From Kiritimatiellia bacterium (GTDB lineage Bacteria > Verrucomicrobiota > Kiritimatiellia > JAAZAB01): a stretch of DNA of 64,000 nt. The notes beneath the pieces were generated by a model. It was not told the DNA's origin. It made no database searches and was given only the letters and a program-made list of their open reading frames with translations. Location of the stretch: positions 128,001 to 192,000 of the forward strand of contig JAXGPF010000009.1 of NCBI GenBank assembly GCA_040767085.1, in the 5' to 3' direction. A program made the position numbers and the translations under genes. This document shows, piece by piece, positions 1 to 17,591 of the stretch (position 1 is its first letter; every line of letters begins with the position of its first letter).

Positions 1-1
1 T

Positions 2-532
2 AGTGAACGGGACTGGGCCAACCAGATCGCCAGAGTCCGCAGTGCGCTCCGACCTGTCATCGCGGAACAATGGAACGGAGAAGCAGAGACGTTTTGCCAG
101 TGGTCTACGGAGTTCGCCGGGCCAGCGAAATCCGAAGGGCACCAGACTCATACGATACCCAATCGCTATCGGTTTACCCATGGCGGGCGTTTCGTAGACA
201 TCGATGTCGGCACGATCCACAGTGCGAAGGGCCAGACGCACACCGCGACACTACTTATGGAAACTTATTTTAAGAAGCATGACATGGAGGATCTACTCCG
301 GTGGATCTCCGGAGAGATGTGCGGTGCCACTTCCGAAACGGGGAAGGAACGACCGGAGCGGATGCGCCTTGTCTACACCGCCATGACCCGCCCAAGCCAT
401 CTTCTCTGTCTTGCAATGCGAAAAACTATGATCGAACAAATAAACACGGAAAGCGAAACTCGGCATCGGCTTACGAAACGCGAATGGACGCTGATTGATC
501 TAGACTCCTCCAAAGGAGACCCTAATGGCTAA
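2..532 (+). CDS. UvrD/Rep (SF1) helicase, C-terminal part (5'-truncated by window)
   Basis: Frame is open from base 2 and reads ...IDVGTIHSAKGQTHTATLLMETYF...RMRLVYTAMTRP (SF1 motifs V and VI); its stop overlaps the next gene's start. Confidence 0.85.
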   Translation, partial: SERDWANQIARVRSALRPVIAEQWNGEAETFCQWSTEFAGPAKSEGHQTHTIPNRYRFTHGGRFVDIDVGTIHSAKGQTHTATLLMETYFKKHDMEDLLRWISGEMCGATSETGKERPERMRLVYTAMTRPSHLLCLAMRKTMIEQINTESETRHRLTKREWTLIDLDSSKGDPNG

Positions 533-2233
533 ATCTGAAACACCTGTAGAAGAATTGGTTGGAATGATCGAGCGCGGCGAACTGCGCTTACCCGAAATGC
601 AGCGCCGGTACGTCTGGCGCTCAACCAGAGTGCGAGATTTGCTCGATTCACTCTATCGCGGCTATCCGTCCGGTGCAATCCTCCTTTGGGAGACCGACGA
701 GACAGTGCCGTTGCAGGAGATGGCTGTCACTCAGCAGAAGAATCCCTATCAGAGCACAAAGTTGTTGCTCGACGGCCAGCAACGGCTCACCTCTCTACTT
801 GCGGTGGTCCATGGTTCGCCGGTTACGGTACGTGGAAGACGAAGACCCATCGAATTGCTCTTTAACTTGGAACACCCGGACCAGTTGTCCGTCGTGACCG
901 AAGTCAACGAGGACAATGACGACGACGATGACCTGATCGAGGACGAGCAGGATTCATCCGAAGACGAACTGCAGAAACGTTTTAACAAGATGACATTTGT
1001 GGTGACCACCAAGAAATTGGAGCAGCTTCCCCAGTGGGTGAAGGTCACAGATGTGTTCAAGACCGACAGCGACTCCATTTTTCTCAAACGAGCAGGCGTC
1101 AACAACTTAGATGATCCGCGATGTGAGAAATATAGCCAGCGCCTGGCTCGCCTGCGCAGCATCCGCAAATACGCCTATCACGTAGACGTTTTGGAAAGAG
1201 GGTTGTCCTACGCCGAAGTAACGGAAATATTCGTCCGCGTTAACTCCTTAGGCGCCAAGCTCCGCAGTTCTGATCTTGCGCTCGCCCAGATTACAGCGAA
1301 GTGGCGGAACTCTCTTAAGATCTTTCAAGCGTTCCAGACGCAATGCGCAAAACTTGGTTTCGACCTCGACCTTGGCATTTATATTAAGAATTTGATTGTC
1401 TTTGCCACCGGCCAGTCACGATTTCTGACCGTGGGTGGGCTCTCTCTTGAAATCTTGCAGGAGAGTTGGAAAAAATGCTGTGAGGGTATAGAATTCGCGC
1501 TCAACTTTCTGAAGTCCAACGCGGGGATCGACAGTCCGGCGTTGCTCTCTTCTCCATTCATGGCTGTGACACTGGCTTTTTATGGTCAACGATGCGACTA
1601 TCAGATCGCACCGGAGGAGGCTGAACGTTTGCGCTACTGGGTGTTGGTAGCCAACGCAAAGGGCCGCTATTCGCGCGGTTCAAGCGAAACGCTCCTCGAT
1701 CAAGATCTCACAACGTTGAAACAAAGCGGCGGCGCAGCAGCACTCATTGACCGGCTGCGTCTGCAAGTAGGTCGTCTCGACATCGCCCCGGACGAGTTAG
1801 TGGGTCGCAACCAGCGAAGCGCCTTGTTCAAGACCATGTTCCTTGCATTCCGTGCTGCTGGTGCCAAGGACTGGCGCTCAAACCTGTCCATCTCTCTCGA
1901 TCATTCCGGTTCACACCATCGTTTGCAGTTCCACCATATCTTCCCTAAGGCCTTACTCAAAAGTTCATACACCGGCCGGGAGGCAGACGACATCGCAAAC
2001 CTGTGTTTCATTTCTGGCAAGACCAACCGTCAGATCAGCAATAAGCCTCCAGTCAATATTTCCAGCCCCTGATCGACAAAGGCGGCCTCGTGGCGTTCGA
2101 GGCCCAAAGCATTCCGACAGATTCCGCCCTCCTGGATATTAACGGCTACAAGGCCTTCTTGGTCAAGAGGCGGGAGTCAATAGCGGCACGACTTAACGGA
2201 TTTCTCGGGCAAACAACCCATGGCAGACTGTAA
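525..2233 (+). CDS. GmrSD-like type IV restriction protein (DUF262 + C-terminal HNH/DUF1524), frameshifted near 2050
   Basis: LPEMQRRYVW, LLDGQQRLTSL and FVRVNSLG (DUF262); HHIFPK...IANL...N (HNH). The ORF stops at 2072, but another frame continues SQYFQPLIDKGG...FLVKRRESIAARLNGFLG to TAA at 2231-2233. Confidence 0.85.
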
Positions 2234-2396
2234 ACCATATGCGGCGTATCTGAACATGCTCGTCAAGAGCCTTTGGGATTATCAGCAGAATTATATTCTG
2301 GATGCGATGTCCCTTCTCGATAGGCCATTCGCTCAAGGTAAGCGTCCGGCCGGGCGCCTTCTATGCAGGGCCGCCGGGATGTGATAAACCGGCGGC

Positions 2397-2741
2397 ATGA
2401 AGACCAAACAATGCGGAGGCAGACGGGGGCGTGCGCTGCGGACAGCGGCGCAACGGCAGGAACTGGTTCAGGCATGGCGGGCGGCGGGCGTTACGCAGGC
2501 GAAGTATTGCGCCCGACACGGCATCCACCCCACCACATTCAGCACATGGTGCCGCAAGGCGCCCCAAGCAACTGGCGGCGGCCAGACCAAGGCTGGCGTT
2601 AAATTCGCGGAGTTCAAGATGGCTCTCGGCGGGATGGCGCCGATTGAGGTGGTGTTGCCCAATCGCGTGACGATCCGGCTGCGTGACGCGGGCTTGTGCC
2701 GGGAACTGCTGCCGGTGCTGCGCGGGGAAGTGTCATGTTGA
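2397..2741 (+). CDS. tnpA: IS66 accessory protein TnpA (HTH)
   Basis: WRAAGVTQAKYCARHGIHPTTFSTW HTH; overlaps tnpB. Confidence 0.85.
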   Translation: MKTKQCGGRRGRALRTAAQRQELVQAWRAAGVTQAKYCARHGIHPTTFSTWCRKAPQATGGGQTKAGVKFAEFKMALGGMAPIEVVLPNRVTIRLRDAGLCRELLPVLRGEVSC

Positions 2742-3085
2742 ACTTCACCGGGGCATTGAAAGTGTTTGTGGCGGTGCAGCCGGCGGACTTGCGCAAGAGC
2801 TTTTCCGGGTTATATGCGCTGACGGCGAATGTGTTGAACGAGCGGCCGGATTCGGGCGGATTGTTCGTGTTCACCAATCAGCGGCGGAACCGGGTGAAGG
2901 CGCTGTATTGGGACGGGACGGGATTTTGGGTTATGACCAAGCGGTTGGAGCGCGGGACGTTTTCCTGGCCGGCGGTGGTTGGTGAGCATAGCGGCAAGCT
3001 GGAGTTGCGTCCGGAAGCGTTGGCGCTGTTACTGGATGGGGTGGATTTGCGGGAGGGCCGGCTGCGCCCCTGGTACCAGCGGTAA
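2735..3085 (+). CDS. tnpB: IS66 accessory protein TnpB
   Basis: DLRKSFSGL...LFVFTN...KALYWDGTGFW...KRLERGTF signature. Confidence 0.92.
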   Translation: MLNFTGALKVFVAVQPADLRKSFSGLYALTANVLNERPDSGGLFVFTNQRRNRVKALYWDGTGFWVMTKRLERGTFSWPAVVGEHSGKLELRPEALALLLDGVDLREGRLRPWYQR

Positions 3086-3158
3086 AACGCAAAAATAATT
3101 TCACGCGCTGCAAGAATTTGCTTTTTATTCATGCGTCCATGCCCATATAATATGGGGC

Positions 3159-6100
3159 ATGCAAACGCCTGAAAAAGAGATGAAAACACCTGGCTCCCTA
3201 ACCAGAATTTGTGGGTAAAAAACAGGTTTTTAAAGTTTAAAGAAGTTCTCCAAGCAATGGCGCCCAAAAGATGGTGGAATTATTAACAGCCTGCGCTTTG
3301 GGCGTTTGGCGGCCCCGCAACAGCCTGATTATGCTCTGATTGGCGCGATGGCGGAACGGAGATAAAGCGGCGGCAAAAAAATGAGCTGGCCTTTCCGTAA
3401 TCCATTGCGTATGCAATGGGTGAACACAAAAAAAGGAGGACCAGCCCAAGGTGAAGCTTAAAACAATGGCTCACTAACCAGAATTTGTAGGTAAAACAGG
3501 TTTTAAAGTTTAAGAAGTTCTCCAAGCAATGGCGCTAAAAGATGGTGGAGTTATTAACAGCCTGCCGCTTTGGGCGTTTTGGCGGCCCCACAACAGCCTG
3601 ATTAATAACTCCTGATTAACGCGATGGCGGAACGGAGATAAAGCGGCGGCAAAAAAATAGGCTGGCCTTTCCGTAATCATTGCGTGGCCACGTGGGTGAA
3701 CACAAAAAAAGGGAGGACCAGCTGGGTAAGAGCTTAAAACAATTTTGAATCGTTTGCAACCTTTGAAACGTTTTATTTATCAGGAAACTTGTATGGTTTT
3801 GGATCATCGCGGCCAATGGAAAGTGGATATAAAGCATTCGTCCGCATCGCCAACGCGCGGCATGCTGCTCGCGTTGCGGGCGACCGCTGGCGACATACGA
3901 CACTCTGCCTGAACGGATATGGGCGTTTGTGCCCATTTTGAATGTGCCGGCTTTTTTGCATTATAGTCCGCGCCGGGTAAATTGCCCCGAACATGGCGTG
4001 GTGGGCGCTGCCTTGGAGCGATGGCAAACGACCCTACAGCAAGGCGCTGATGCTTTTTTGGGGAACTGGGCGCGGAGGTTGTCCTGGAAAGAGACGAGGC
4101 GCTGATTTTAAAGTCAGTTGGCAGGCGGTTTATCGGTCGGTCAGGTGGATGGTGGAATAGGGCTTGGCGCGGCTGAGTCAGCAATAACGGCGATTGGTGT
4201 TGATGAACTCCACGTAGGCAACGGTAAAAAGAGCAGGAGCATACGCGACTGATCTATCAGATTGATGCACCAATGCCGCCGATTGCTCTGGGTCGGCCAA
4301 ACCCGCCGGGCGGCCGCGCTGCGTAAGGGTTGCAATCTTCCGGGAAAACCCGTGCTGGCCGGCATTCGACATATATGTAGCGATATGTGGCGACCTTATC
4401 TGAAAGTCATTGCTGCGAGCCTCAGCCACGGTTGCCACATGATTGACCGCTTCCATGTCGTGCAAACCTTGAATGCCGCCGTGGACGAGGTCCGGCGCCG
4501 GGATATGGCGGCGATGACGGCGCGTCCGGCGGCCAAGCAAGAAACTCAAGAAAATGCGCTGGACCTTGCTGCGCCGCAAAACCGCGTGCGCAGCAAAGCT
4601 CGCGAAATGCTTGATCGGATATTGGGCACAAGACTGCAAACCGGCCGCGCCTATTTGTTCAAGAAAGCTTTCAGCATTTTTGGAGCTATCACAAGCCAAC
4701 CTGGGCGCGTAATTATCTCCAGGCATGGGTCAAGCGCGCCTGTCGTAGCCGCATTGCGCCAATCATTAAGGCGGCTAAAACCATTGCTAAACACGAGGAG
4801 CTGCTTTTGAACTGGATCAGAGCCCAGAAACGAGGTTTTTACTGCCGGCCGCAACCGAGGGCTTGAACAAGCGAAGCTCAGTGGTTACCAAACGATCTTA
4901 TGGCTTCAGAACTTTTCGGCGCGGAAATGGCTATATCGCTTTTACCGGGCAATTGCCAGGCGGTAATCACCCACAAATTCTGGTGAAACAAAACACTGAT
5001 TGAACTGCTTGAGCGCTACAAAAACAGCTTCAGGCGTTGCAAGATCAGGACCAGGCGTTGCGGATCGAGAACAAGCTGCTGCATGCTGAAGGTACAGTTT
5101 TTACTGAAGCGGATGTTCGGGCGCAAGAGCGAGAAGATAGACCCGCGGCAACTGGAATTGTTGTTGCAAGGGTTGGCAGTGGAAGAGACGCCGCCGGAAG
5201 ATGATCCGCCGCCCAGTCCCCCGAGTCCGCCGCGCGCGCCGCGCGAAAAGAACAAGCCGCGGATGCCCGCGGATTTGCCGGTGGAAGAAGAAGTCATTAT
5301 TCCGGAAGCCGTGGAACAGAATCTCGCGAAGGCTTACAAGTGTATCGGCGAAGAAGTCACAGAGGAACTGGATGTTGACCCGGCGCGGTATTTCCAGAAA
5401 CGCGGATCATTCGCCGCAAGTATGTCCGCAAAGACCGCGCGGAGCAGGCGCCGATCATTGCGCCGCTGAAGCCGCGTCTGATAGAAGGCAGCTATGCCAG
5501 CGTGGGATTGGTGACGGACATCATTTTGAAGAAATACGTGGATCACCTGCCGCTATACCGGCAGGAACGCATTTTAAAGACCCGGCACGGGATAGACTTG
5601 TCGCGGAAAACAATGTGCGACTGGGTGGGTAAGACCGCGGTTTTGTTGGGGCATTTTGCAGCATGTCCGCACGGGCTTGAAAAGCAGCGGATATTTGCAA
5701 ATAGACGAAACGCCGGTGCGATATTGCCGGGATGATGGCGGCGGCGGCGGCCAGGATACTTATGGGCGTATCATCATCGGTGAAGATGTGTTATTTGAAT
5801 GGCATACCAGCCGGAGCGCGGGATTGTTTGGAGCGGATGCTGCAGGTAATTTCAGCGGCACGGCGCAGAGCGGCGGATATGCGCTGCCCGGCTTTCGCGA
5901 AACAACCGGATTGTGTTGGCAGGCTGCTGGGCGCATGCGCAGCGCAAATTCAAGGATGCCGTAGAAGAAACGCCTGGGATGGCGGTGGATTGCTTGAATC
6001 AGATAGGCTTGTTATATGACATTGAAGCCGGTTTGCGTAATCCGGAGTATGCGCGCATTTGCGGCAGGTGGCCCGGAGTGCCGCCAGCCGGATGATTTTG

Positions 6101-9813: not shown

Positions 9814-10164
9814 CTACCAATGCCCGTCGCGGACCTCCCGAACCACCCGCAAAACAGCATGATCTGGGGCGTCCTTTAATTCCCGGATCATATCCGCAAA
9901 CAGGCGGGGGCGCTTCATGATGATCTGGCGCAGGTCGGACGAGACTTTGCCCGCCATGGCAAGCAGGATGTCGTGGTCTTCCTGAAGCGCCTCGGCCAGG
10001 CGCCGGATAGTGGCTTCGGATGGTGGCGGAGTCGCATCTCTTTCTATTTTACTGAGATACGACGGCTCCAAGCCAATCCTACATGCCACCTTACGGACGG
10101 TATATTCCGACTTGATTTGCAATAATTTTTCTCTTTTTGCACGAATATATTTGCCAAAACTCAT
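9814..10164 (-). CDS. XRE-family HTH transcriptional regulator
   Basis: FGKYIRAKRE...VRKVACRIGLEPSYLSKIER HTH_3 pattern. Confidence 0.9.
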   Translation of the reverse strand: MSFGKYIRAKREKLLQIKSEYTVRKVACRIGLEPSYLSKIERDATPPPSEATIRRLAEALQEDHDILLAMAGKVSSDLRQIIMKRPRLFADMIRELKDAPDHAVLRVVREVRDGHW

Positions 10165-10237
10165 AGTGCTGTGTAGTATGTTCTACACAGAACTTTACGT
10201 CAAGAATATTTTGATGAATTTTTCATCTGGAGTACAA

Positions 10238-11386
10238 ATGACTGAACTTCAATTGAACCTTGATGGCGCGTTTACGCATACTGCCGCAGAACTTCAGCAG
10301 ATGATACGTAAATACATCCTGGACATACTCGAATCACAAAGCCAGCCAAGCGCGGGTGAGCTCCTAGCCAAATTAGAGAATCGTTTTGACTGGCGGGTAC
10401 GGCAGATGTTGTTTCCGGTGGTGAAGGAACTTTGCGAAGATAAAACCGTGTCTAGATATCAACGCGACTACCTTAAAACAAATCTGCATCAAGAGGATAT
10501 TGAACAAGCATTACGCGGAGCTGTCAAACCGTCACAGGACTTCAAGAGCACGATTGACAAATTGATTACGAAAAGCCGGCTCTATCGGTCGTCTTCCGCC
10601 TTCCAGGAAGCGGTTGCGTTTATGGCTAAGTTCCGTGCCTATGCCCCATTTAACAATCTACTCGTCAAAGTGCAGAATCCCGCATGTGGATTCTACGCCA
10701 CCGAGAAAGATTGGAATAATAAATTTAGACGGTGGGTTAAAGAGGATGCCCGGCCAATGCTAATTTTGGCGCCAATGCATCCGGTTATGCTGGTCTATGA
10801 TGTCGATTCTACGGATGGTCAGCCACTGCCCAAGCATTTTGAGGATTTCGGCATTACTCAAGCGGACAAAGATTGGAACTACAATATCCTTGAACAAACG
10901 CTCATGAATTCAAAAAGGGATTTGATTGATGTCCATTTCAAACCTTTGTCAAAAACCATGTCAGGTTTTACCACTACTCGCGTTCAGAACCAAGGATGCA
11001 AGATGCGGATTGTTGTGAATAATAAGGAAGACCTACCCAGCCGCTACTCAATTTTATGCCATGAACTTGCCCACATTTACCTTGGACATTTAGGCGGTGA
11101 TAGAGATCGCTGGTGGCCTTCTCGGATTAATTTATCACATCCTACTGTGGAGATTGAAGCCGAAGCTGCGGCATATACTGTGGCAATTCGCACTGGTCTC
11201 AGGCCAGCGTCTGATTCGTATTTATCTTCATACTTGACAGATAAAGGAGTGCCGGATTCCGTCAGCATGGAGCTAATCGCTAAGGTTTCGGGTCGAATTG
11301 AAGAGATGGGCAAGCGGAAACTGCCGCCGCGCAAACGATTAAAACAACCAACCCAACCTGCTGATAACGAGAATCTCCTTTTTTAA
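10238..11386 (+). CDS. ArdC-like ssDNA-binding domain fused to ImmA/IrrE-type zinc metallopeptidase
   Basis: FRAYAPFNNLLVKVQNP...ATEKDW...RWVKEDARPMLILAP (ArdC-N-like) and HELAH...EIEAEAAAY (zincin). Confidence 0.8.
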   Translation: MTELQLNLDGAFTHTAAELQQMIRKYILDILESQSQPSAGELLAKLENRFDWRVRQMLFPVVKELCEDKTVSRYQRDYLKTNLHQEDIEQALRGAVKPSQDFKSTIDKLITKSRLYRSSSAFQEAVAFMAKFRAYAPFNNLLVKVQNPACGFYATEKDWNNKFRRWVKEDARPMLILAPMHPVMLVYDVDSTDGQPLPKHFEDFGITQADKDWNYNILEQTLMNSKRDLIDVHFKPLSKTMSGFTTTRVQNQGCKMRIVVNNKEDLPSRYSILCHELAHIYLGHLGGDRDRWWPSRINLSHPTVEIEAEAAAYTVAIRTGLRPASDSYLSSYLTDKGVPDSVSMELIAKVSGRIEEMGKRKLPPRKRLKQPTQPADNENLLF

Positions 11387-11736
11387 GTACATACTAAATA
11401 TTTAAGAAAGTATCCATGAGCGAAGAAATTATTTTGCATATTGATCACGATGTGCTGCTAAAGAACCTTATTCCTTGGACTAAAGTTGAACGCCGTCGGA
11501 AACACGACAATGCAGTCTTGTCGTTTGACGGTACTTTACTGAACATAGACTGAGCAGGATCGGAGTAATTGATGTTTTTCCGGGTTGTTTGAGTCACGCT
11601 AAGTGATGGACGTGGGCAAGCGTCCATCAGATAAAGTGCTTCTTTTTGCTCCCCTTGATTTTTGAGCATGCGGTAGCCTGCTGCGTCAGCAGCGGGGGCG
11701 CTGCCTCCTTGCAGCGTGCCGTGGGCGATTTCGTTT

Positions 11737-12135
11737 TTATGGCAGCGACGCTTTTAAGACTCGGTCGAGGTCGGCTTGGATTGGTTGGAGCAGTTCTATA
11801 TCCATGAATCCGTCTTGCACCTGTTTTTGCGCCTTGACCAGGGCTTCCCGGAAGAATGCCGCGGCGAGCGCCGGGTGACCTTTTTTTTCGTAGACCATTC
11901 CCAGCCCGTTAAATCCGTCGGGCACATCGGGTTGCGCGAGCATAAGTTTGTTGAAAATTTCCTCGGCGTCGTTAAGCTTGCCGGCGTCAATCAGATCGAG
12001 TCCCTGATTCCACCATTCGATGTCGTCTTCTTCCTCGAGTGGCCGGATTTGCGGGTATTGTTTTCTGATATTTGCGATATATTCCGCGATATTTATGGGA
12101 GCACGCATATGCATAAGGTACTCAACAGCGGTCAT
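11737..12135 (-). CDS. TPR-repeat protein (passenger); start uncertain
   Basis: GLDLIDAGKLNDAEEIFNKLMLAQPDVPDGFNGLGMVYEKKG..ALAAAFFREAL TPR pattern. Confidence 0.7.
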   Translation of the reverse strand: MTAVEYLMHMRAPINIAEYIANIRKQYPQIRPLEEEDDIEWWNQGLDLIDAGKLNDAEEIFNKLMLAQPDVPDGFNGLGMVYEKKGHPALAAAFFREALVKAQKQVQDGFMDIELLQPIQADLDRVLKASLP

Positions 12136-12663
12136 TTTATCAAGTATTTAGAGCGATTTGATGGGAAGATTGCGCAGGCCGCCAAGGCGGAGATGTGCCG
12201 GTATTGCGGCGGCAAGCTGCATTGCGGCGATTATGCGCGCAAGCCGCGCGGTGTTGTCGGGTGGGATAAACGCCACAGTTTTAACTGTGCGCGGTGTCGG
12301 CGGCGCAAGACGCCGCCCAGCGTGCGTTTTCTTGGGCGCCGGGTTTATGCGGGCGTGGTGGTGGCGCTGGTGAGCGCGCTGATGCATGGTCTGAATGCTG
12401 GGCGCGCGCAGGTATTGGTTGAAAAACTGGGCATTGACCGGCGAACATTAAAGCGTTGGCTTGCATGGTGGCGCGCGGTGTTTGTGACGAGCGGGTTTTG
12501 GAAGGGCGCTCGGGCGAGTTTTATGCCACAGGTTGAGGCTACCCGGATGCCGTTGAGTTTATTGGAGGCGTTTGGCGCGGAGCGGCGCCGCGGGATGTTC
12601 AAGCTGTTACTTTTTATTGCGCCGATTACCACTGGTTCGTGTGAAATGGCGGTGGTTATGTGA
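12109..12663 (+). CDS. Zn-ribbon + HTH accessory protein of the transposon
   Basis: CRYCGGKLH...RKPRG...CARCRRRKTPPSVRFLGRRVY followed by LGIDRRTLKRW (HTH-like). Confidence 0.75.
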   Translation: MHKVLNSGHFIKYLERFDGKIAQAAKAEMCRYCGGKLHCGDYARKPRGVVGWDKRHSFNCARCRRRKTPPSVRFLGRRVYAGVVVALVSALMHGLNAGRAQVLVEKLGIDRRTLKRWLAWWRAVFVTSGFWKGARASFMPQVEATRMPLSLLEAFGAERRRGMFKLLLFIAPITTGSCEMAVVM

Positions 12664-12799
12664 TGGTTGTTTTTCTCCCGCAGAGCATGCCGCTGGAGCT
12701 TTGCGCGAGGGCGTTATACCTTGGGCGGCATTGCAACGGAATGGTCGGCGGAGCGGAATGGATTTCGCTTGGCGGCGGGCCAGACGGGAGGGGTGCGCA

Positions 12800-14296
12800 A
12801 TGCCAAAACAGGATGCGGATTATAGCGCGGGTGGCGGTGGTTCCGGGGGATGCGCGCGGTGGGCGCATTTTCGTTTCAGCGTAATTGGCCCATTATTGGC
12901 GGCGCCGCCGGGGCGGGGCGATTTGCAGGCGGAGATTGCGCTTCTGGCCGGCAAGCAATGGCGGCATCCGGTGACGGGGCAATGGGTGCGGTTTGGGTCT
13001 TCCACGATTGAGCGGTGGTATTACCGGGCTTTACATGGGGCCAAAGACCCGGTCGGCGTGTTGACGCGCAAGGTGCGCAACGATCATGGCGCCCATCGCA
13101 GTTTGAGCTTTGAGTTGCGCAATGCAATAAGCGTCCAGCACCAACAACACCCGGAGTGGAGTTGCCAACTGCATTACGACAACCTGGCGGTGCGCGTGGC
13201 GGAGGATTCGCGACTGGGAGCGTTACCGTCTTATGTGTCGGTGCGCCGTTATATGCGTGCCGCGGGGATGTTCAAGCGCCGCCGTTTGGGCGGGCGCCGG
13301 GATACCGCCGGCGCCCGGGCCGCCGAAGCGCGGTTTGCGGCTTTAGAGGTGCGCTCCTACGAAAGCGAGTACGTCAATGCGCTATGGCATTTGGACTTTC
13401 ATCAGGGATCAATCCCGGTCTTGACCAAGCCCGGCGAGTGGTTGCGGCCGCAATTACTTGGAGTGTTGGACGATCATTCCCGCATGTGCTGCCACTTGCA
13501 GTGGTACCTGGCGGAAACCGCCGAGAACCTGACGCATGGGTTAAGCCAAGCCATGCAAAAATGCGGTCTGCCAAGGGCGCTGATGACGGACAACGGCGGC
13601 GCCATGACGGCCGACGAAACCACGCAAGGACTCGCGCGTTTAGGTGTTTTACACGAGAAGACGCTGCCCTATAGCGCCTACCAGAACGGCAAACAGGAAT
13701 CCTTCTGGGGGCAAATAGAAGGGCGGTTGCTGCCCATGCTCGGCGGCTGCCCTGATTTGACGCTGGCACAGCTCAACCAGGCGACACAGGCCTGGGTCGA
13801 AATGGAATATAACCGCAAGGTGCATTCCGCGACCGCCCGATCGCCGGTTGATCGTTTTGTCAATGTCAAAGACGTGGGCAGAACTTGCCCATCCGCGGAA
13901 GTCTTGCGCCAGGCATTCACCGCCGGATGTTCGCGAACGCAACGCTTTAGTGATGGCACCATTAGCATTGACGGCGTACGCTTCGAGGTGCCTTCCCGCT
14001 ACCGCCATATCAAACGCATCGGCGTGCGATACGCCGCATGGGACTTGTCTTATGTTCATCTGGCCGACGCGCGTAGCGATCAAATCTTGACGCGGCTATT
14101 TCCGCAAGACAAACACAAAAACGCCGACGGCCACCGCCGCCAAAAGGAAACCATAGGCGACCATCCCGATCCAACATCGCCGCCGCCGCGGTCAACCGGC
14201 ATGGCGCCACTGTTGCGCAAATTCATCGCGGATTATGCCGCCACCGGGCTGCCGCCAGCTTATCTGCCAAAGGATGAACTCAAAATACAGGAGTAA
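12800..14296 (+). CDS. DDE transposase/integrase (rve core, Mu-like C-terminal domain)
   Basis: LWHLDFH / LMTDNGG / NGKQESFW catalytic triad; RTQRFSDGTISIDGVRFEVP C-terminal domain. Confidence 0.92.
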   Translation: MPKQDADYSAGGGGSGGCARWAHFRFSVIGPLLAAPPGRGDLQAEIALLAGKQWRHPVTGQWVRFGSSTIERWYYRALHGAKDPVGVLTRKVRNDHGAHRSLSFELRNAISVQHQQHPEWSCQLHYDNLAVRVAEDSRLGALPSYVSVRRYMRAAGMFKRRRLGGRRDTAGARAAEARFAALEVRSYESEYVNALWHLDFHQGSIPVLTKPGEWLRPQLLGVLDDHSRMCCHLQWYLAETAENLTHGLSQAMQKCGLPRALMTDNGGAMTADETTQGLARLGVLHEKTLPYSAYQNGKQESFWGQIEGRLLPMLGGCPDLTLAQLNQATQAWVEMEYNRKVHSATARSPVDRFVNVKDVGRTCPSAEVLRQAFTAGCSRTQRFSDGTISIDGVRFEVPSRYRHIKRIGVRYAAWDLSYVHLADARSDQILTRLFPQDKHKNADGHRRQKETIGDHPDPTSPPPRSTGMAPLLRKFIADYAATGLPPAYLPKDELKIQE

Positions 14297-14305
14297 TCAA
14301 ACATC

Positions 14306-15136
14306 ATGAGTAAAAAACTACTTGCGCTATACAGCCTGAAGTACAACCCGTTCTGCCAGGAAGTGCCGACCGCCGCACTATTCAGGACGCCGGCCGTCGA
14401 ACATTTTTGCTGGCGGATTGAAAATCAGGTCGGCGAAGGCGGCTTCGCGTTGGTTACCGGCTCGCCCGGATCCGGCAAAAGCGTGGCGCTGCGTATTCTG
14501 GCCGACCGGCTGCGCGGCATCCCGGATATCACCGTCGGCATCATCACCCGACCACAAGCATCCGTGGCCGACTTCTACCGCGAAATGGGCGATCTGTTCG
14601 CAACTACGCTGACGCCAAGCAACCGTTGGGGCGGCGCCAAGGCGTTGCGTCAAAAATGGCTGACCCATATTGACGCCTCGCTCTACCGCCCCGTCCTCCT
14701 CATCGATGAAGCCCAACTCATGACGCCGGGAACACTGGGTGAACTGCGCATGCTGGCAAGCGCCGAACTCGACTCGCGTAGCATCCTCACCGTGGTGCTC
14801 GCCGGGGATGAAAGACTGGTTAACAAACTGCGCAGCGACGACCTGTTGCCAATGGCCAGCCGTATCCGCTGCCGGCTGCCCTGTGACCCCGCCACCCCTC
14901 AACAACTACGCGAATGCCTCAACCATCAGCTAAAACAGGCCGGCAACACCAGATTGCTTTCAGACCCCGTAATCGCCGCGCTTTGCGAACATGCCGCCGG
15001 AAATTACCGGTCTTTAATGAACATGGCCAACGACCTCTTGGCCGCCGCATTACAACGTGAACTCGACCAAATTGATGAAAAACTCTTCTTCGATGTGTTC
15101 AATATCCGTGCCATATCAACGCAAAAATCCCAATAA
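14306..15136 (+). CDS. ExeA-like AAA+ ATPase (transposition helper)
   Basis: Walker A GSPGSGKS and Walker B LLIDEAQ; N-terminal YSLKYNPF. Confidence 0.9.
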   Translation: MSKKLLALYSLKYNPFCQEVPTAALFRTPAVEHFCWRIENQVGEGGFALVTGSPGSGKSVALRILADRLRGIPDITVGIITRPQASVADFYREMGDLFATTLTPSNRWGGAKALRQKWLTHIDASLYRPVLLIDEAQLMTPGTLGELRMLASAELDSRSILTVVLAGDERLVNKLRSDDLLPMASRIRCRLPCDPATPQQLRECLNHQLKQAGNTRLLSDPVIAALCEHAAGNYRSLMNMANDLLAAALQRELDQIDEKLFFDVFNIRAISTQKSQ

Positions 15137-15787
15137 AGCAACAACACTTAAACACGACAAGTAAAGACGGGGCGCCTACACGTCACGCCCAATTAAAAAG
15201 CGAATAGGCTCTCATTAAACAAGCCAGGCCAAACACATATCCATCAATTATCACGACAAATCATCCATCATTTTTTGTGATCGCTCTCAGACATGAGGGG
15301 CGTGTGCATCAAAGCGCCGGCCCAAGGCACATGGAACGGACAAGTTCGTATCTCTGCCTCGTTTATGGCAATGATAGCAAAGATGCCCTTCCCGGCTGGG
15401 CCCATAATCTTTCGCATTCAAGACAACCGCTTATGTGTAAATGTTTTCTCATGCCCATGCGTATGGCAATCCTCGGATCAATCAGTCATTAGGTTGCCAA
15501 TTAATGCCGATACTGCGCTGTTCCTTGCACTAAAACTCCGCTATTCAATGGACCGAATTCGTGCATCCGGTTTACTGGAAGCGGTGAACGCCGCAGAAGC
15601 ACAATGTAAACGAGATGTATATTCTGCCACCCTGGCGTTGTCAAAGTATGGGGTGCGTTCAGAGGATTTACGCGTCCTTATTGATCAGGCATTGATTGAG
15701 AATGGTTTGACCGGAAAAGCATAAAGACGACCATCACAGTAGCTGTCCATAATCACCGCTCAAAAGCCATTCTGTCGGAAGGGTTTC

Positions 15788-16921: not shown

Positions 16922-17591
16922 TGCAGTCCGGTCCAGCACCTTCTACACAAATGGTCCGGCCATGTTATACTGCTTCGGCAATAATTATGCCGCTTGATTT
17001 TGAGCGGCTTTTCTGGCGGCCTGCCAGCGGGCGGGCGTCAGTTCCGCCACCTCGGTGATTTGCATAGCCGGCAGGCGCGTAAGTACGTCCAGACAGTATT
17101 CGCGTTGGTTGATCCCGCGGCGACGGCAGCTTTCCAGCGGTGTGCATATGATCGCGCTGCGTTGCCCCGCCTCCCGGGAACCAAAGGATAACCAGTTGTT
17201 TTTGCCCAGCGCCGTTGGCCGGATGGCGTTTTCCACCAGGTTGTTGTCTATTTCTGTCGCAGTCGCAGAGAAAAGTCTTTCCCCCGCCAGTTGTTATCCT
17301 GCGGGCCGCCATCTGGAACTCCTTGAATTTAATACCAGGTTTGGTCGGCCCGCCGCCGGATGCCTTTGGCGCCGCGCGGAACCCCGTGCTGAATGTGGTG
17401 GGGTGTATGCCGCGGCGAGCGAAATGCTGCATATGGGTAACTCCCGACGCCCGCCATCCTGAACCAGTTCCTGCCGTTGCGCCGATGTCCGCAGCAGCCG
17501 GCCCTGCCTGCCTGCTCGTTGTTTGCTTTCATACCGCCTGTCTAACACATCCCGGCGGCCGTGCATAGGTGGTGCTTGGTTGGCCGCTTAT
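16922..17591 (-). mobile_element. Internally deleted, non-autonomous IS66 relic (~670 bp)
   Basis: Degenerate left end plus tnpA 5' part fused to the tnpC 3' end (ENAIRPTALGKNNW...KAAQNQAA) and the right-end sequence. Confidence 0.8.

Follow-up and report, generated by a model that had tools for sequence, protein, structure and literature searches.

Transposons assisted by an ATPase, among them Mu, Tn7, IS21 and the CRISPR-guided systems, provide the best-understood cases of regulated transposition and are the basis of programmable DNA-insertion tools. We have analysed here a 3739-bp element at positions 11551-15289 of a 64,000-nucleotide stretch of DNA from a Kiritimatiellia bacterium (assembly GCA_040767085.1, contig JAXGPF010000009.1, positions 128,001 to 192,000 of the forward strand); this whole stretch is referred to below as the window, and positions are counted from its first letter. 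Judged from its genes and ends, the element is a member of the group named after Tn6049 of Cupriavidus metallidurans CH34, and not a new kind of transposon. We put at about 80% the probability that it is a recently active, probably autonomous transposon of this group with a conserved three-gene transposition operon, encoding a Cys4 zinc-ribbon/helix-turn-helix (HTH) protein, an rve-type DDE transposase and an AAA_22 ('ExeA-like') ATPase.

The CH34 genome paper of 2010 describes Tn6049 as 3.5 kb long and present in 12 copies, all with an ATPase gene provisionally called 'gspA' (PMC2864759). Later papers report a copy on the Pseudomonas aeruginosa plasmid pHS87a, with 12-bp imperfect inverted repeats and a 4-bp duplication (PMC4739549), related transposons in Acidithiobacillus, tabulated in 2012 as 'Tn6049 related transposons' (PMC3414803, Table S5), and, in 2018, a Tn6049 transposition module that "could not be categorized" (PMC6210171). 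Literature searches on an ExeA/AAA_22 ATPase together with an rve/IS481 transposase did not find the family under another name; as far as the extracts of the literature searched go, the group is known solely as Tn6049, and its mechanism appears never to have been studied. An earlier note on this DNA, made from the sequence alone, had proposed a poorly described transposon family. This is borne out for the mechanism, which is undescribed, but not for the family as such, since there is a named relative whose genes stand in the same order and whose ends are related. The note had set its proposal against a close match to a named family sharing both ends and duplication length, and Tn6049 goes part of the way towards such a match, its duplications being 4-6 bp and not 3.

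The tips TGAG...CTCA bound the element. Its left end, starting at 11551, reads TGAGCAGGATCGGAGTAATTGATG and its right end, as the reverse complement, TGAGAGCGATCACAAAAAATGATG; on the forward strand the last bases are ...CATCATTTTTTGTGATCGCTCTCA, ending at 15289. From the tip inwards, both ends carry TGAG-N3-GATC-N8-TGATG at equal offsets, within the left terminal repeat L1 (11551-11575, + strand), which matches the family end consensus given below, and the right terminal repeat R1 (15265-15289, - strand; reverse complement TGAGAGCGATCACAAAAAATGATGG). Further end-like sites bring the total to three at the left and two at the right. L2 (11590-11612, +; TGAGTCACGCTAAGTGATGGACG) is oriented as L1 and is an inverted repeat of both right-end sites, L3 (11621-11638, -) is inverted relative to L2, and R2 (15240-15257, -) emerged from an inverted-repeat and motif scan. 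L2 and L3 form a hairpin-capable pair, whose arms in the inverted-repeat scan are 11595-11612 and 11621-11638; a hairpin at 11604-11629 is not among the predictions of a terminator scan of the element. The motif TGATGGA occurs at 11604 (+), 11623 (-), 15240 (-) and 15264 (-), so that four of its 11 occurrences in the window fall within ~90 bp of the element's two ends; across the window as a whole the motif is not enriched (7.9 expected, and 11 or more in 13 of 100 shuffles).

A search of the element's own genome with the 3739-bp sequence returned five matches, four of them 100% identical over bases 1-3739 (contigs C28, C26, C22 and C3) and sharing the same first and last base. The 3-bp direct repeats that flank these four copies all differ (GAC, GTC, ACG and TTC), the chance of a random 3-bp flank match being 1/64 per copy. 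In the window the two copies of GAC lie at 11548-11550 and 15290-15292. Four independent insertions agree, which establishes both the boundaries and the duplication of 3 bp, and identical copies at four sites, each with its own duplication, indicate recent activity. The earlier note was thus right to describe a transposon with precise bounds and a 3-bp duplication, and its matching end motifs, GAC/GAC flanks, additional TGATGGA motifs and hairpin can all be read directly. Contigs of four public sequencing runs from three studies end or switch flank precisely at 11549-11551 and 15289/15290, and a contig of 3740 bases consists of the element alone. The fifth match in the genome (C27:263410-267126) is 97% identical, with tips TGAA...CTCC and flanks GAC/GAA; its 52 mismatches and 43 short indels are evenly spread, G>A and A>G being the commonest changes, and it is either an old, decayed copy or a poorly assembled or polished stretch.

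Sampled words of the stretch were found in 20 public runs from 11 studies, covering anaerobic digester, landfill, bioreactor, wastewater and sludge metagenomes. In two of four runs that were compared, there are 4-6 base differences along the full length of the element, and the flanks are other ones; the element therefore circulates in digester, landfill and wastewater-type habitats.

The first gene of the core operon (12109-12663, +) encodes the zinc-finger protein of 184 residues, recognised by two CxxC pairs and weak HTH matches. In an alignment of 46 sequences C33, C60 and C63 are invariant and C30 is kept in at least 90%, and RKPR, TPPSVRFLGRRVY and, within the HTH, T-x2-R-W are also conserved. 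The structure model (predicted local distance difference test, pLDDT, 79) combines a long helix with a small beta zinc ribbon, and its C-terminal half is helical. Fold searches give only local zinc-ribbon matches (Rpb9/TFIIS and NudC; 41-52 columns) and weak ones to LuxR/TrpR-type HTH domains (Z 3.3-3.8), and HTH_23 matches 34 of the 46 family members. A profile search for the protein found 3265 clusters (90% identity) at E ≤ 1e-5; among the 120 clusters listed the source name is always 'hypothetical protein', and a single Pfam domain, PF13384 (HTH_23), is annotated, on one of them. Kinship with the N-terminus of the transposase was considered and rejected (hhalign probability 1%). DUF6431, to which a protein atlas links distant clusters, serves as a lead only; none of the 46 members matches it at E ≤ 1.

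A fusion of the zinc-finger and transposase proteins by frameshift or read-through was likewise rejected. IS3 family elements have two overlapping frames joined by a programmed -1 frameshift. Here the two genes differ in frame by 0, 1 and 2 at 24, 19 and 20 of 63 distinct loci, respectively, and because this relation is not fixed there is no IS3-like fusion. At only 12 of the 63 loci do the open frames of the two genes overlap. The transposase frame of the window is open 107 nucleotides upstream of the zinc-finger stop, and in Tn6049 the two genes are in one frame, with a TGA as the sole stop between them.

The transposase gene (12800-14296, +; rve E 2.4e-9) encodes 498 residues with a D-D-35-E core, of which D199 and E300 are invariant and D264 is present in at least 90% of 44 aligned sequences. 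In the structure model (pLDDT 83.6) helical DNA-binding domains (residues 15-180) are followed by the RNase-H core (195-340), a beta-barrel (375-433), a disordered linker (441-463) and a terminal helix (470-481). The tail at about 470-490 (APLL..., AATGLPPAYLP), residues 482-490 included, is nearly invariant in the same 44 sequences. Foldseek places full-length ShCAST TnsB first (5e-18), followed by Tn7 TnsB (6e-15), IstA (8e-14) and MuA (3e-13), with retroviral integrases lower, a ranking that partly reflects which transposases have solved structures.

The ATPase gene (14306-15136, +; AAA_22 E 3.4e-19) starts 9 nucleotides after the transposase stop and encodes 276 residues, in which the Walker A (G52-K58-S59) and Walker B (D134-E135) motifs are invariant across 42 sequences. 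MuB (E 2.9e-6) and ShCAST TnsC (E 1.3e-3) are its best solved relatives by profile, and among PHROGs it matches 'DNA transposition protein' (5e-20). Its alignment with TniB of Tn402 type is weak (hhalign probability 63%, E 7e-5, 101 columns, Walker A to Walker B), and no IstB, TniB or TnsC Pfam family is found at E ≤ 0.01. In view of these profile matches, the earlier note had overdrawn the contrast between this protein and IstB, MuB and TnsC. A complex prediction for the ATPase with transposase residues 436-498 gave a score of 0.00 and a mark of 0.32 and bears on contact between them neither way. Against 50,697 phage records the transposase had one weak match and the ATPase none, and thus no close relatives.

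In a protein search of plasmid records the transposase was matched in 290, of which 23 cover at least 80% of it, all at <60% identity. Matches are best on a Paraburkholderia phytofirmans PsJN plasmid (54%) and on many Cupriavidus metallidurans replicons (53%). The relative on the PsJN plasmid ends in TGAG...CTCA tips, its inverted repeat is perfect over 26 bp, and its flanks do not match. On pMOL30 the matching gene belongs to Tn6049, a block annotated as a 'transposase' (181 residues), an 'IS481 family transposase' (479 residues), an 'AAA family ATPase' (277 residues) and a small hypothetical protein. Gene order and strand in Tn6049 are as in the window, with zinc-finger proteins 36%, transposases 54% and ATPases 57% identical. 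The ends are comparable, with TG...CA termini, an inner TGATGG and more TGATGG(A) motifs near both ends; the tips are TGTG...CACA in Tn6049 but TGAG...CTCA here, both fitting TG[A/T]G followed by TGA[T/G]GG at 20-25. Three Tn6049 copies that we read are each 3517 bp long, against 3739 bp here, with ends TGTGCATAAGCA...TGCTCACGCACA and duplications CTATCG, CTGC and TATGG, that is, of 6, 4 and 5 bp, whereas four of four copies here have 3 bp; the 4-bp case agrees with the length reported for pHS87a (PMC4739549). Tn6049 has no TPR (tetratricopeptide repeat) gene such as the one described below, and a small open reading frame of 71-90 residues follows its ATPase gene.

Wider comparison rests on a scan of one genome per species, in which 202 of 229 candidate stretches were confirmed as relatives and the best 80 loci, at 52-70% identity, were kept. 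They come from Verrucomicrobiota, Planctomycetota, Myxococcota, Acidobacteriota, Thermodesulfobacteriota, Pseudomonadota, Actinomycetota and other phyla. A zinc-finger homologue precedes the transposase gene in 70 of the 80, and a homologue of the ATPase follows it in 78. By coordinate reading the misses are contig ends, except at L030, where the match starts at residue 98; the three-gene core is kept wherever enough DNA is present. The earlier note was right about such a core. The family's ends share a consensus of 25 bp, TGAGCnnGnTCACGnTAATTGAGGG, conserved most strongly at positions 1-4 (TGAG), 11 (C) and 20-25 (TGA[T/G]GG).

With this consensus both ends could be called at 39 of the 80 loci, and 36 of these are testable for a duplication, three having <8 bp of flank. 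Direct repeats of 3 bp are present at six, of 4 bp at two, of 5 bp at three, and of 6 and 7 bp at one each, making 13 repeats of at least 3 bp where fewer than one is expected by chance; three more loci have a repeat of 1-2 bp and 20 have none. The length varies even for a single element. L077 and L080, one such pair of copies from the same assembly, are flanked by repeats of 4 and 7 bp; another assembly has four copies, two with 3 bp, one with 2 bp and one truncated. Duplication length is therefore variable in the family (3-7 bp), as in Tn6049, and not a fixed family character. The earlier note had treated the 3-bp duplication as distinguishing; it is strict for the element itself, but it is one extreme of the family range. 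Variable duplication lengths in IS481-like elements are also mentioned in a further paper (PMC10045372).

Between the zinc-finger and transposase genes is a conserved non-coding motif (12661-12684, +), in which TGATGG is followed, 16 nucleotides on from its start, by CCCGCAGA. The box C[CA]CGCAGA occurs at this intergenic position in 47 of 63 distinct loci, including the same place in Tn6049 (L006, ~3375-3410) and loci in the range L023-L102; TGA[T/G]G stands 16-17 nucleotides upstream of the box in 25 of these 47, and in 22 its TGA serves as the stop codon of the zinc-finger gene. The arrangement resembles an internal copy of the end core beside a second box and is possibly an operator or promoter element.

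A TPR protein gene (11737-12135, -; 132 residues as listed; TPR_2 E 2.8e-8) diverges from the core operon. Homologues in the same place and orientation are found in six of the 80 relatives (L027, at 63% identity, L051, L059, L062, L065 and L090), four of them with an N-terminal SEC-C motif that the window protein lacks. A quick transposase tree groups the window element with L023-L027, from five phyla, with support of 98, and on this quick-method tree, some rows of which lack upstream DNA, five or more gains or losses are required to account for the elements with a TPR gene. As the gene recurs in relatives, on this tree with repeated gains or losses, it is a recurrent optional module and neither a chance passenger nor a one-off cargo; the earlier note had it as cargo. 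As listed, the TPR frame (start 12135, -) and the zinc-finger frame (start 12109, +) overlap head to head by 27 nucleotides. Later ATGs in the TPR frame, one of which may be the true start, would make the two genes abut; the L027 homologue is shorter by 11 residues.

Most relatives have a further gene. Among 47 with at least 900 bp beyond the ATPase gene, 36 have an AAA_25 gene (RepA/DnaB/RecA-like) directly after it (for example L027:3554-4612, L038:7309-8334 and L062:7273-8217), and two have instead a DnaG-like primase with a Zn ribbon and Toprim domain (L043:3944-4927 and L067:3523-4461). Some of the AAA_25 proteins have a C-terminal winged-helix match and one has a DnaA_N domain. These genes hint, by their domain content, at element-encoded replication functions in the relatives. 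All of the nearest relatives L023, L027 and L028 have the AAA_25 gene. The window element, with 153 bp from the ATPase stop to its right end, has none, and the best match in its own genome to an element-type AAA_25 protein (E 2.6e-5, 25% identity) is no close relative. The four insertions therefore needed no AAA_25 gene, either in cis or in trans.

These features suggest a working scheme. The transposase would bind the repeated end sites, three left and two right, through the consensus TGAG-N15-TGA[T/G]GG, pair the ends and join the 3'-CA ends to the target with a 3-bp stagger. The ATPase may sit on DNA as a regulator, delivering the transposase or activating it, and so set where and when insertion occurs, as do MuB, TnsC and IstB; its contact with the transposase would probably be made through the conserved C-terminal tail of the latter. 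The zinc-finger/HTH protein is a candidate DNA-binding third component, serving either as a regulator at the ends or at an operator (the internal box) or as a chooser of targets. The TPR gene would be an optional accessory module outside the core. As to the mode of transposition, the sequence affinity to IS481 and IS3 suggests copy-out/paste-in, and the TnsB/MuA-like build with no second nuclease suggests, by analogy, a replicative route.

On the evidence of the transposase alone, the element could be read as an ordinary IS481- or IS3-type insertion sequence, with its zinc-finger, ATPase and TPR genes as passengers. The best curated (NCBIfam) models for the enzyme are indeed IS481 (NF033577, E 3.1e-32) and, next, IS3 (NF033516, E 3e-20), and RefSeq calls the Tn6049 enzyme an 'IS481 family transposase'. 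The D-D-35-E core and TG...CA termini are shared with these families, and TG...CA ends with a 3-bp duplication are characteristic of IS3-type elements. Both scores are however below the curated cut-offs, at 112.2 bits for IS481, half of the 224 set, and 72.6 bits against 160 for IS3. Members of the IS481 family have a single transposase gene and are about 1-1.3 kb long, whereas the element is 3739 bp with four genes; one or two genes in these two families stand against three conserved in the relatives here. Passenger genes are difficult to reconcile with an order kept in 70 and 78 of 80 relatives across many phyla, with an ATPase gene that follows the transposase so closely here and overlaps it in Tn6049, with an ATPase whose nearest solved relatives, MuB and TnsC, serve transposition, and with a transposase that adds the beta-barrel and conserved tail of ATPase-assisted enzymes. 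We consider this description quite unlikely. A placement in the Tn7/Tn5053 group, in which the zinc-finger protein would be a short selector of targets akin to TniQ, is very unlikely. It accords with the TnsB proteins at the top of the fold matches, the ATPase-TniB alignment and the likewise three-component design, but the zinc-finger protein scores only 0.2% in hhalign against one TniQ and no TniQ family is found in its 46 members, remote kinship lying beyond these comparisons. The transposase profile has no significant match to TniA (hhalign probability 2%), no TniQ, TniB or TnsC Pfam family is present at E ≤ 0.01, and among the open reading frames of the element there is no TnsA or resolvase gene. 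Tn7 and Tn5053 make a fixed 5-bp duplication, against 3 bp in four of four copies here and 3-7 bp in the relatives, and the four insertion sites have no evident common target.

The element could also be a reduced, non-autonomous derivative that needs a helper after loss of AAA_25. The presence of this gene in 36 of 47 relatives, or of a primase gene in two, including the three nearest relatives, and the mere 153 bp left between the ATPase stop and the right end speak for such a history. Yet the genome contains neither a close AAA_25 relative nor any other transposase of the Tn6049-like family, and it has four identical copies of the element nonetheless; Tn6049, too, lacks the AAA_25 gene, yet it is present in 12 copies in CH34 (PMC2864759). 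Dependence on a helper therefore seems highly improbable to us. Several observations nevertheless weigh against the element being a recently active and probably autonomous Tn6049-group transposon. The absence here of a gene that most relatives keep leaves room for the reduced form that it could be. The four public runs showed no circle junction, no empty site and no cointegrate, in contigs that are blind to rare forms. The element contains no predicted sigma-70-like promoter where 2.4 are expected. Foldseek found nothing for the zinc-finger model at E ≤ 0.001, the best VIA Z being 4.1, and we infer the roles of this protein and of the ATPase solely from homology and conservation. Finally, 20 of the 36 testable relatives lack a direct repeat, for which chimeric assembly (of metagenomes) at a multicopy repeat, wrong end calls or recombination between copies are possible causes.

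The insertion in the window interrupts a gene of 188 codons, of which the 5' piece (11416-11550, +) holds 45 and the 3' piece (15293-15724, +) 143. Deleting the element and one GAC puts the two pieces in one frame. The single homologue found in a large protein collection, P0001 (187 residues), is intact and spans the join with neither gap nor overlap: residues 6-45 of the 5' piece align with its residues 5-44 (53% identity) and residues 2-142 of the 3' piece with 46-186 (63%). D44 of P0001 pairs with the final codon ahead of the element and R46 with the second codon behind it. The sequence NID|MRG across the join is therefore colinear with IVD-T-RG of P0001, and the earlier note's claim that removal restores one in-frame gene is upheld. 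The product has no Pfam, NCBIfam or PHROG match, and 60 related genomes contain no match to the 143-residue 3' piece. After removal in silico all four identical copies sit in long open frames of 183-391 codons (333, 391 and 183 codons around the other three copies), and the genes interrupted by those other copies include one for a CobW/HypB/UreG-type GTPase and one AAA_25 gene. For the host genome this is an ordinary finding, a multicopy transposon disrupting at least four genes.

Three of the four identical copies (the window copy L001, L002 on C26 and L003 on C22) lie 51-56 codons into the frame and on its strand. Both named target genes encode P-loop nucleoside triphosphatases (CobW-like and AAA_25), and a relative in another genome (G056) also interrupts an ATPase-like gene, as read from its flanks. 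The choice of such targets and the similar depth of insertion may be due to chance. The insertion region of the window is lower in G+C content (49-51%, against 56% for the window). Its neighbours are a divergent XRE-type HTH gene (9814-10164, -), an IrrE/ImmA-like M78 peptidase gene (10010-11386, +) and, 1.7 kb downstream, a remnant of an IS66-family transposase C-terminus (16985-17236, -), a setting that, from its gene content, looks like a mobile-element or defence island.

More speculatively, the Tn6049 group might be a separate, very large and uncategorised class of ATPase-assisted DDE transposons, with a new Cys4 third component (at least 3265 clusters), an operator-like box and its own replication functions supplied through AAA_25 or primase; we regard this wider proposal as possible but doubtful. 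If it holds, the AAA_25 or primase protein would serve a replicative or copy-out step, and the window element would be active in a form that is minimal by nature, and so well suited to taking the core apart. This copy is compact and evidently recently active, with exact ends, a clean 3-bp duplication and only the TPR module as an extra. Given these exact ends and few extra genes, what the ATPase and the zinc-finger protein do can be tested on it directly. The interest of the group lies in the size and uniformity of the family and in its unexplained third protein, and not in this copy as such.

Set beside the described ATPase-assisted systems, the element shares its transposase fold and domain order with Mu, Tn7 and its CRISPR-associated relatives, IS21 and Tn5053/Tn402, and like the Mu, Tn7, IS21 and Tn5053-type elements it has the ATPase gene directly downstream of the transposase and several asymmetric end sites. 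MuB, TnsC and TniB are distant relatives of its ATPase. The likeness to the Mu A/B pair is at profile level only, in an element with no phage setting (there are no phage genes within its 3.7 kb) and no close phage relatives. With IS21 the match to IstA is one of fold only, as the element falls short of the IstA cut-off (NF033546; 36.6 bits against 160) and of the IstB family. The element also differs from the ATPase-assisted systems in its duplication of 3 bp (3-7 bp in the family) and in the third component, the zinc-finger/HTH protein, which is not the same as theirs; the Tn6049 group is a further group of the same general design, built around a different third protein.

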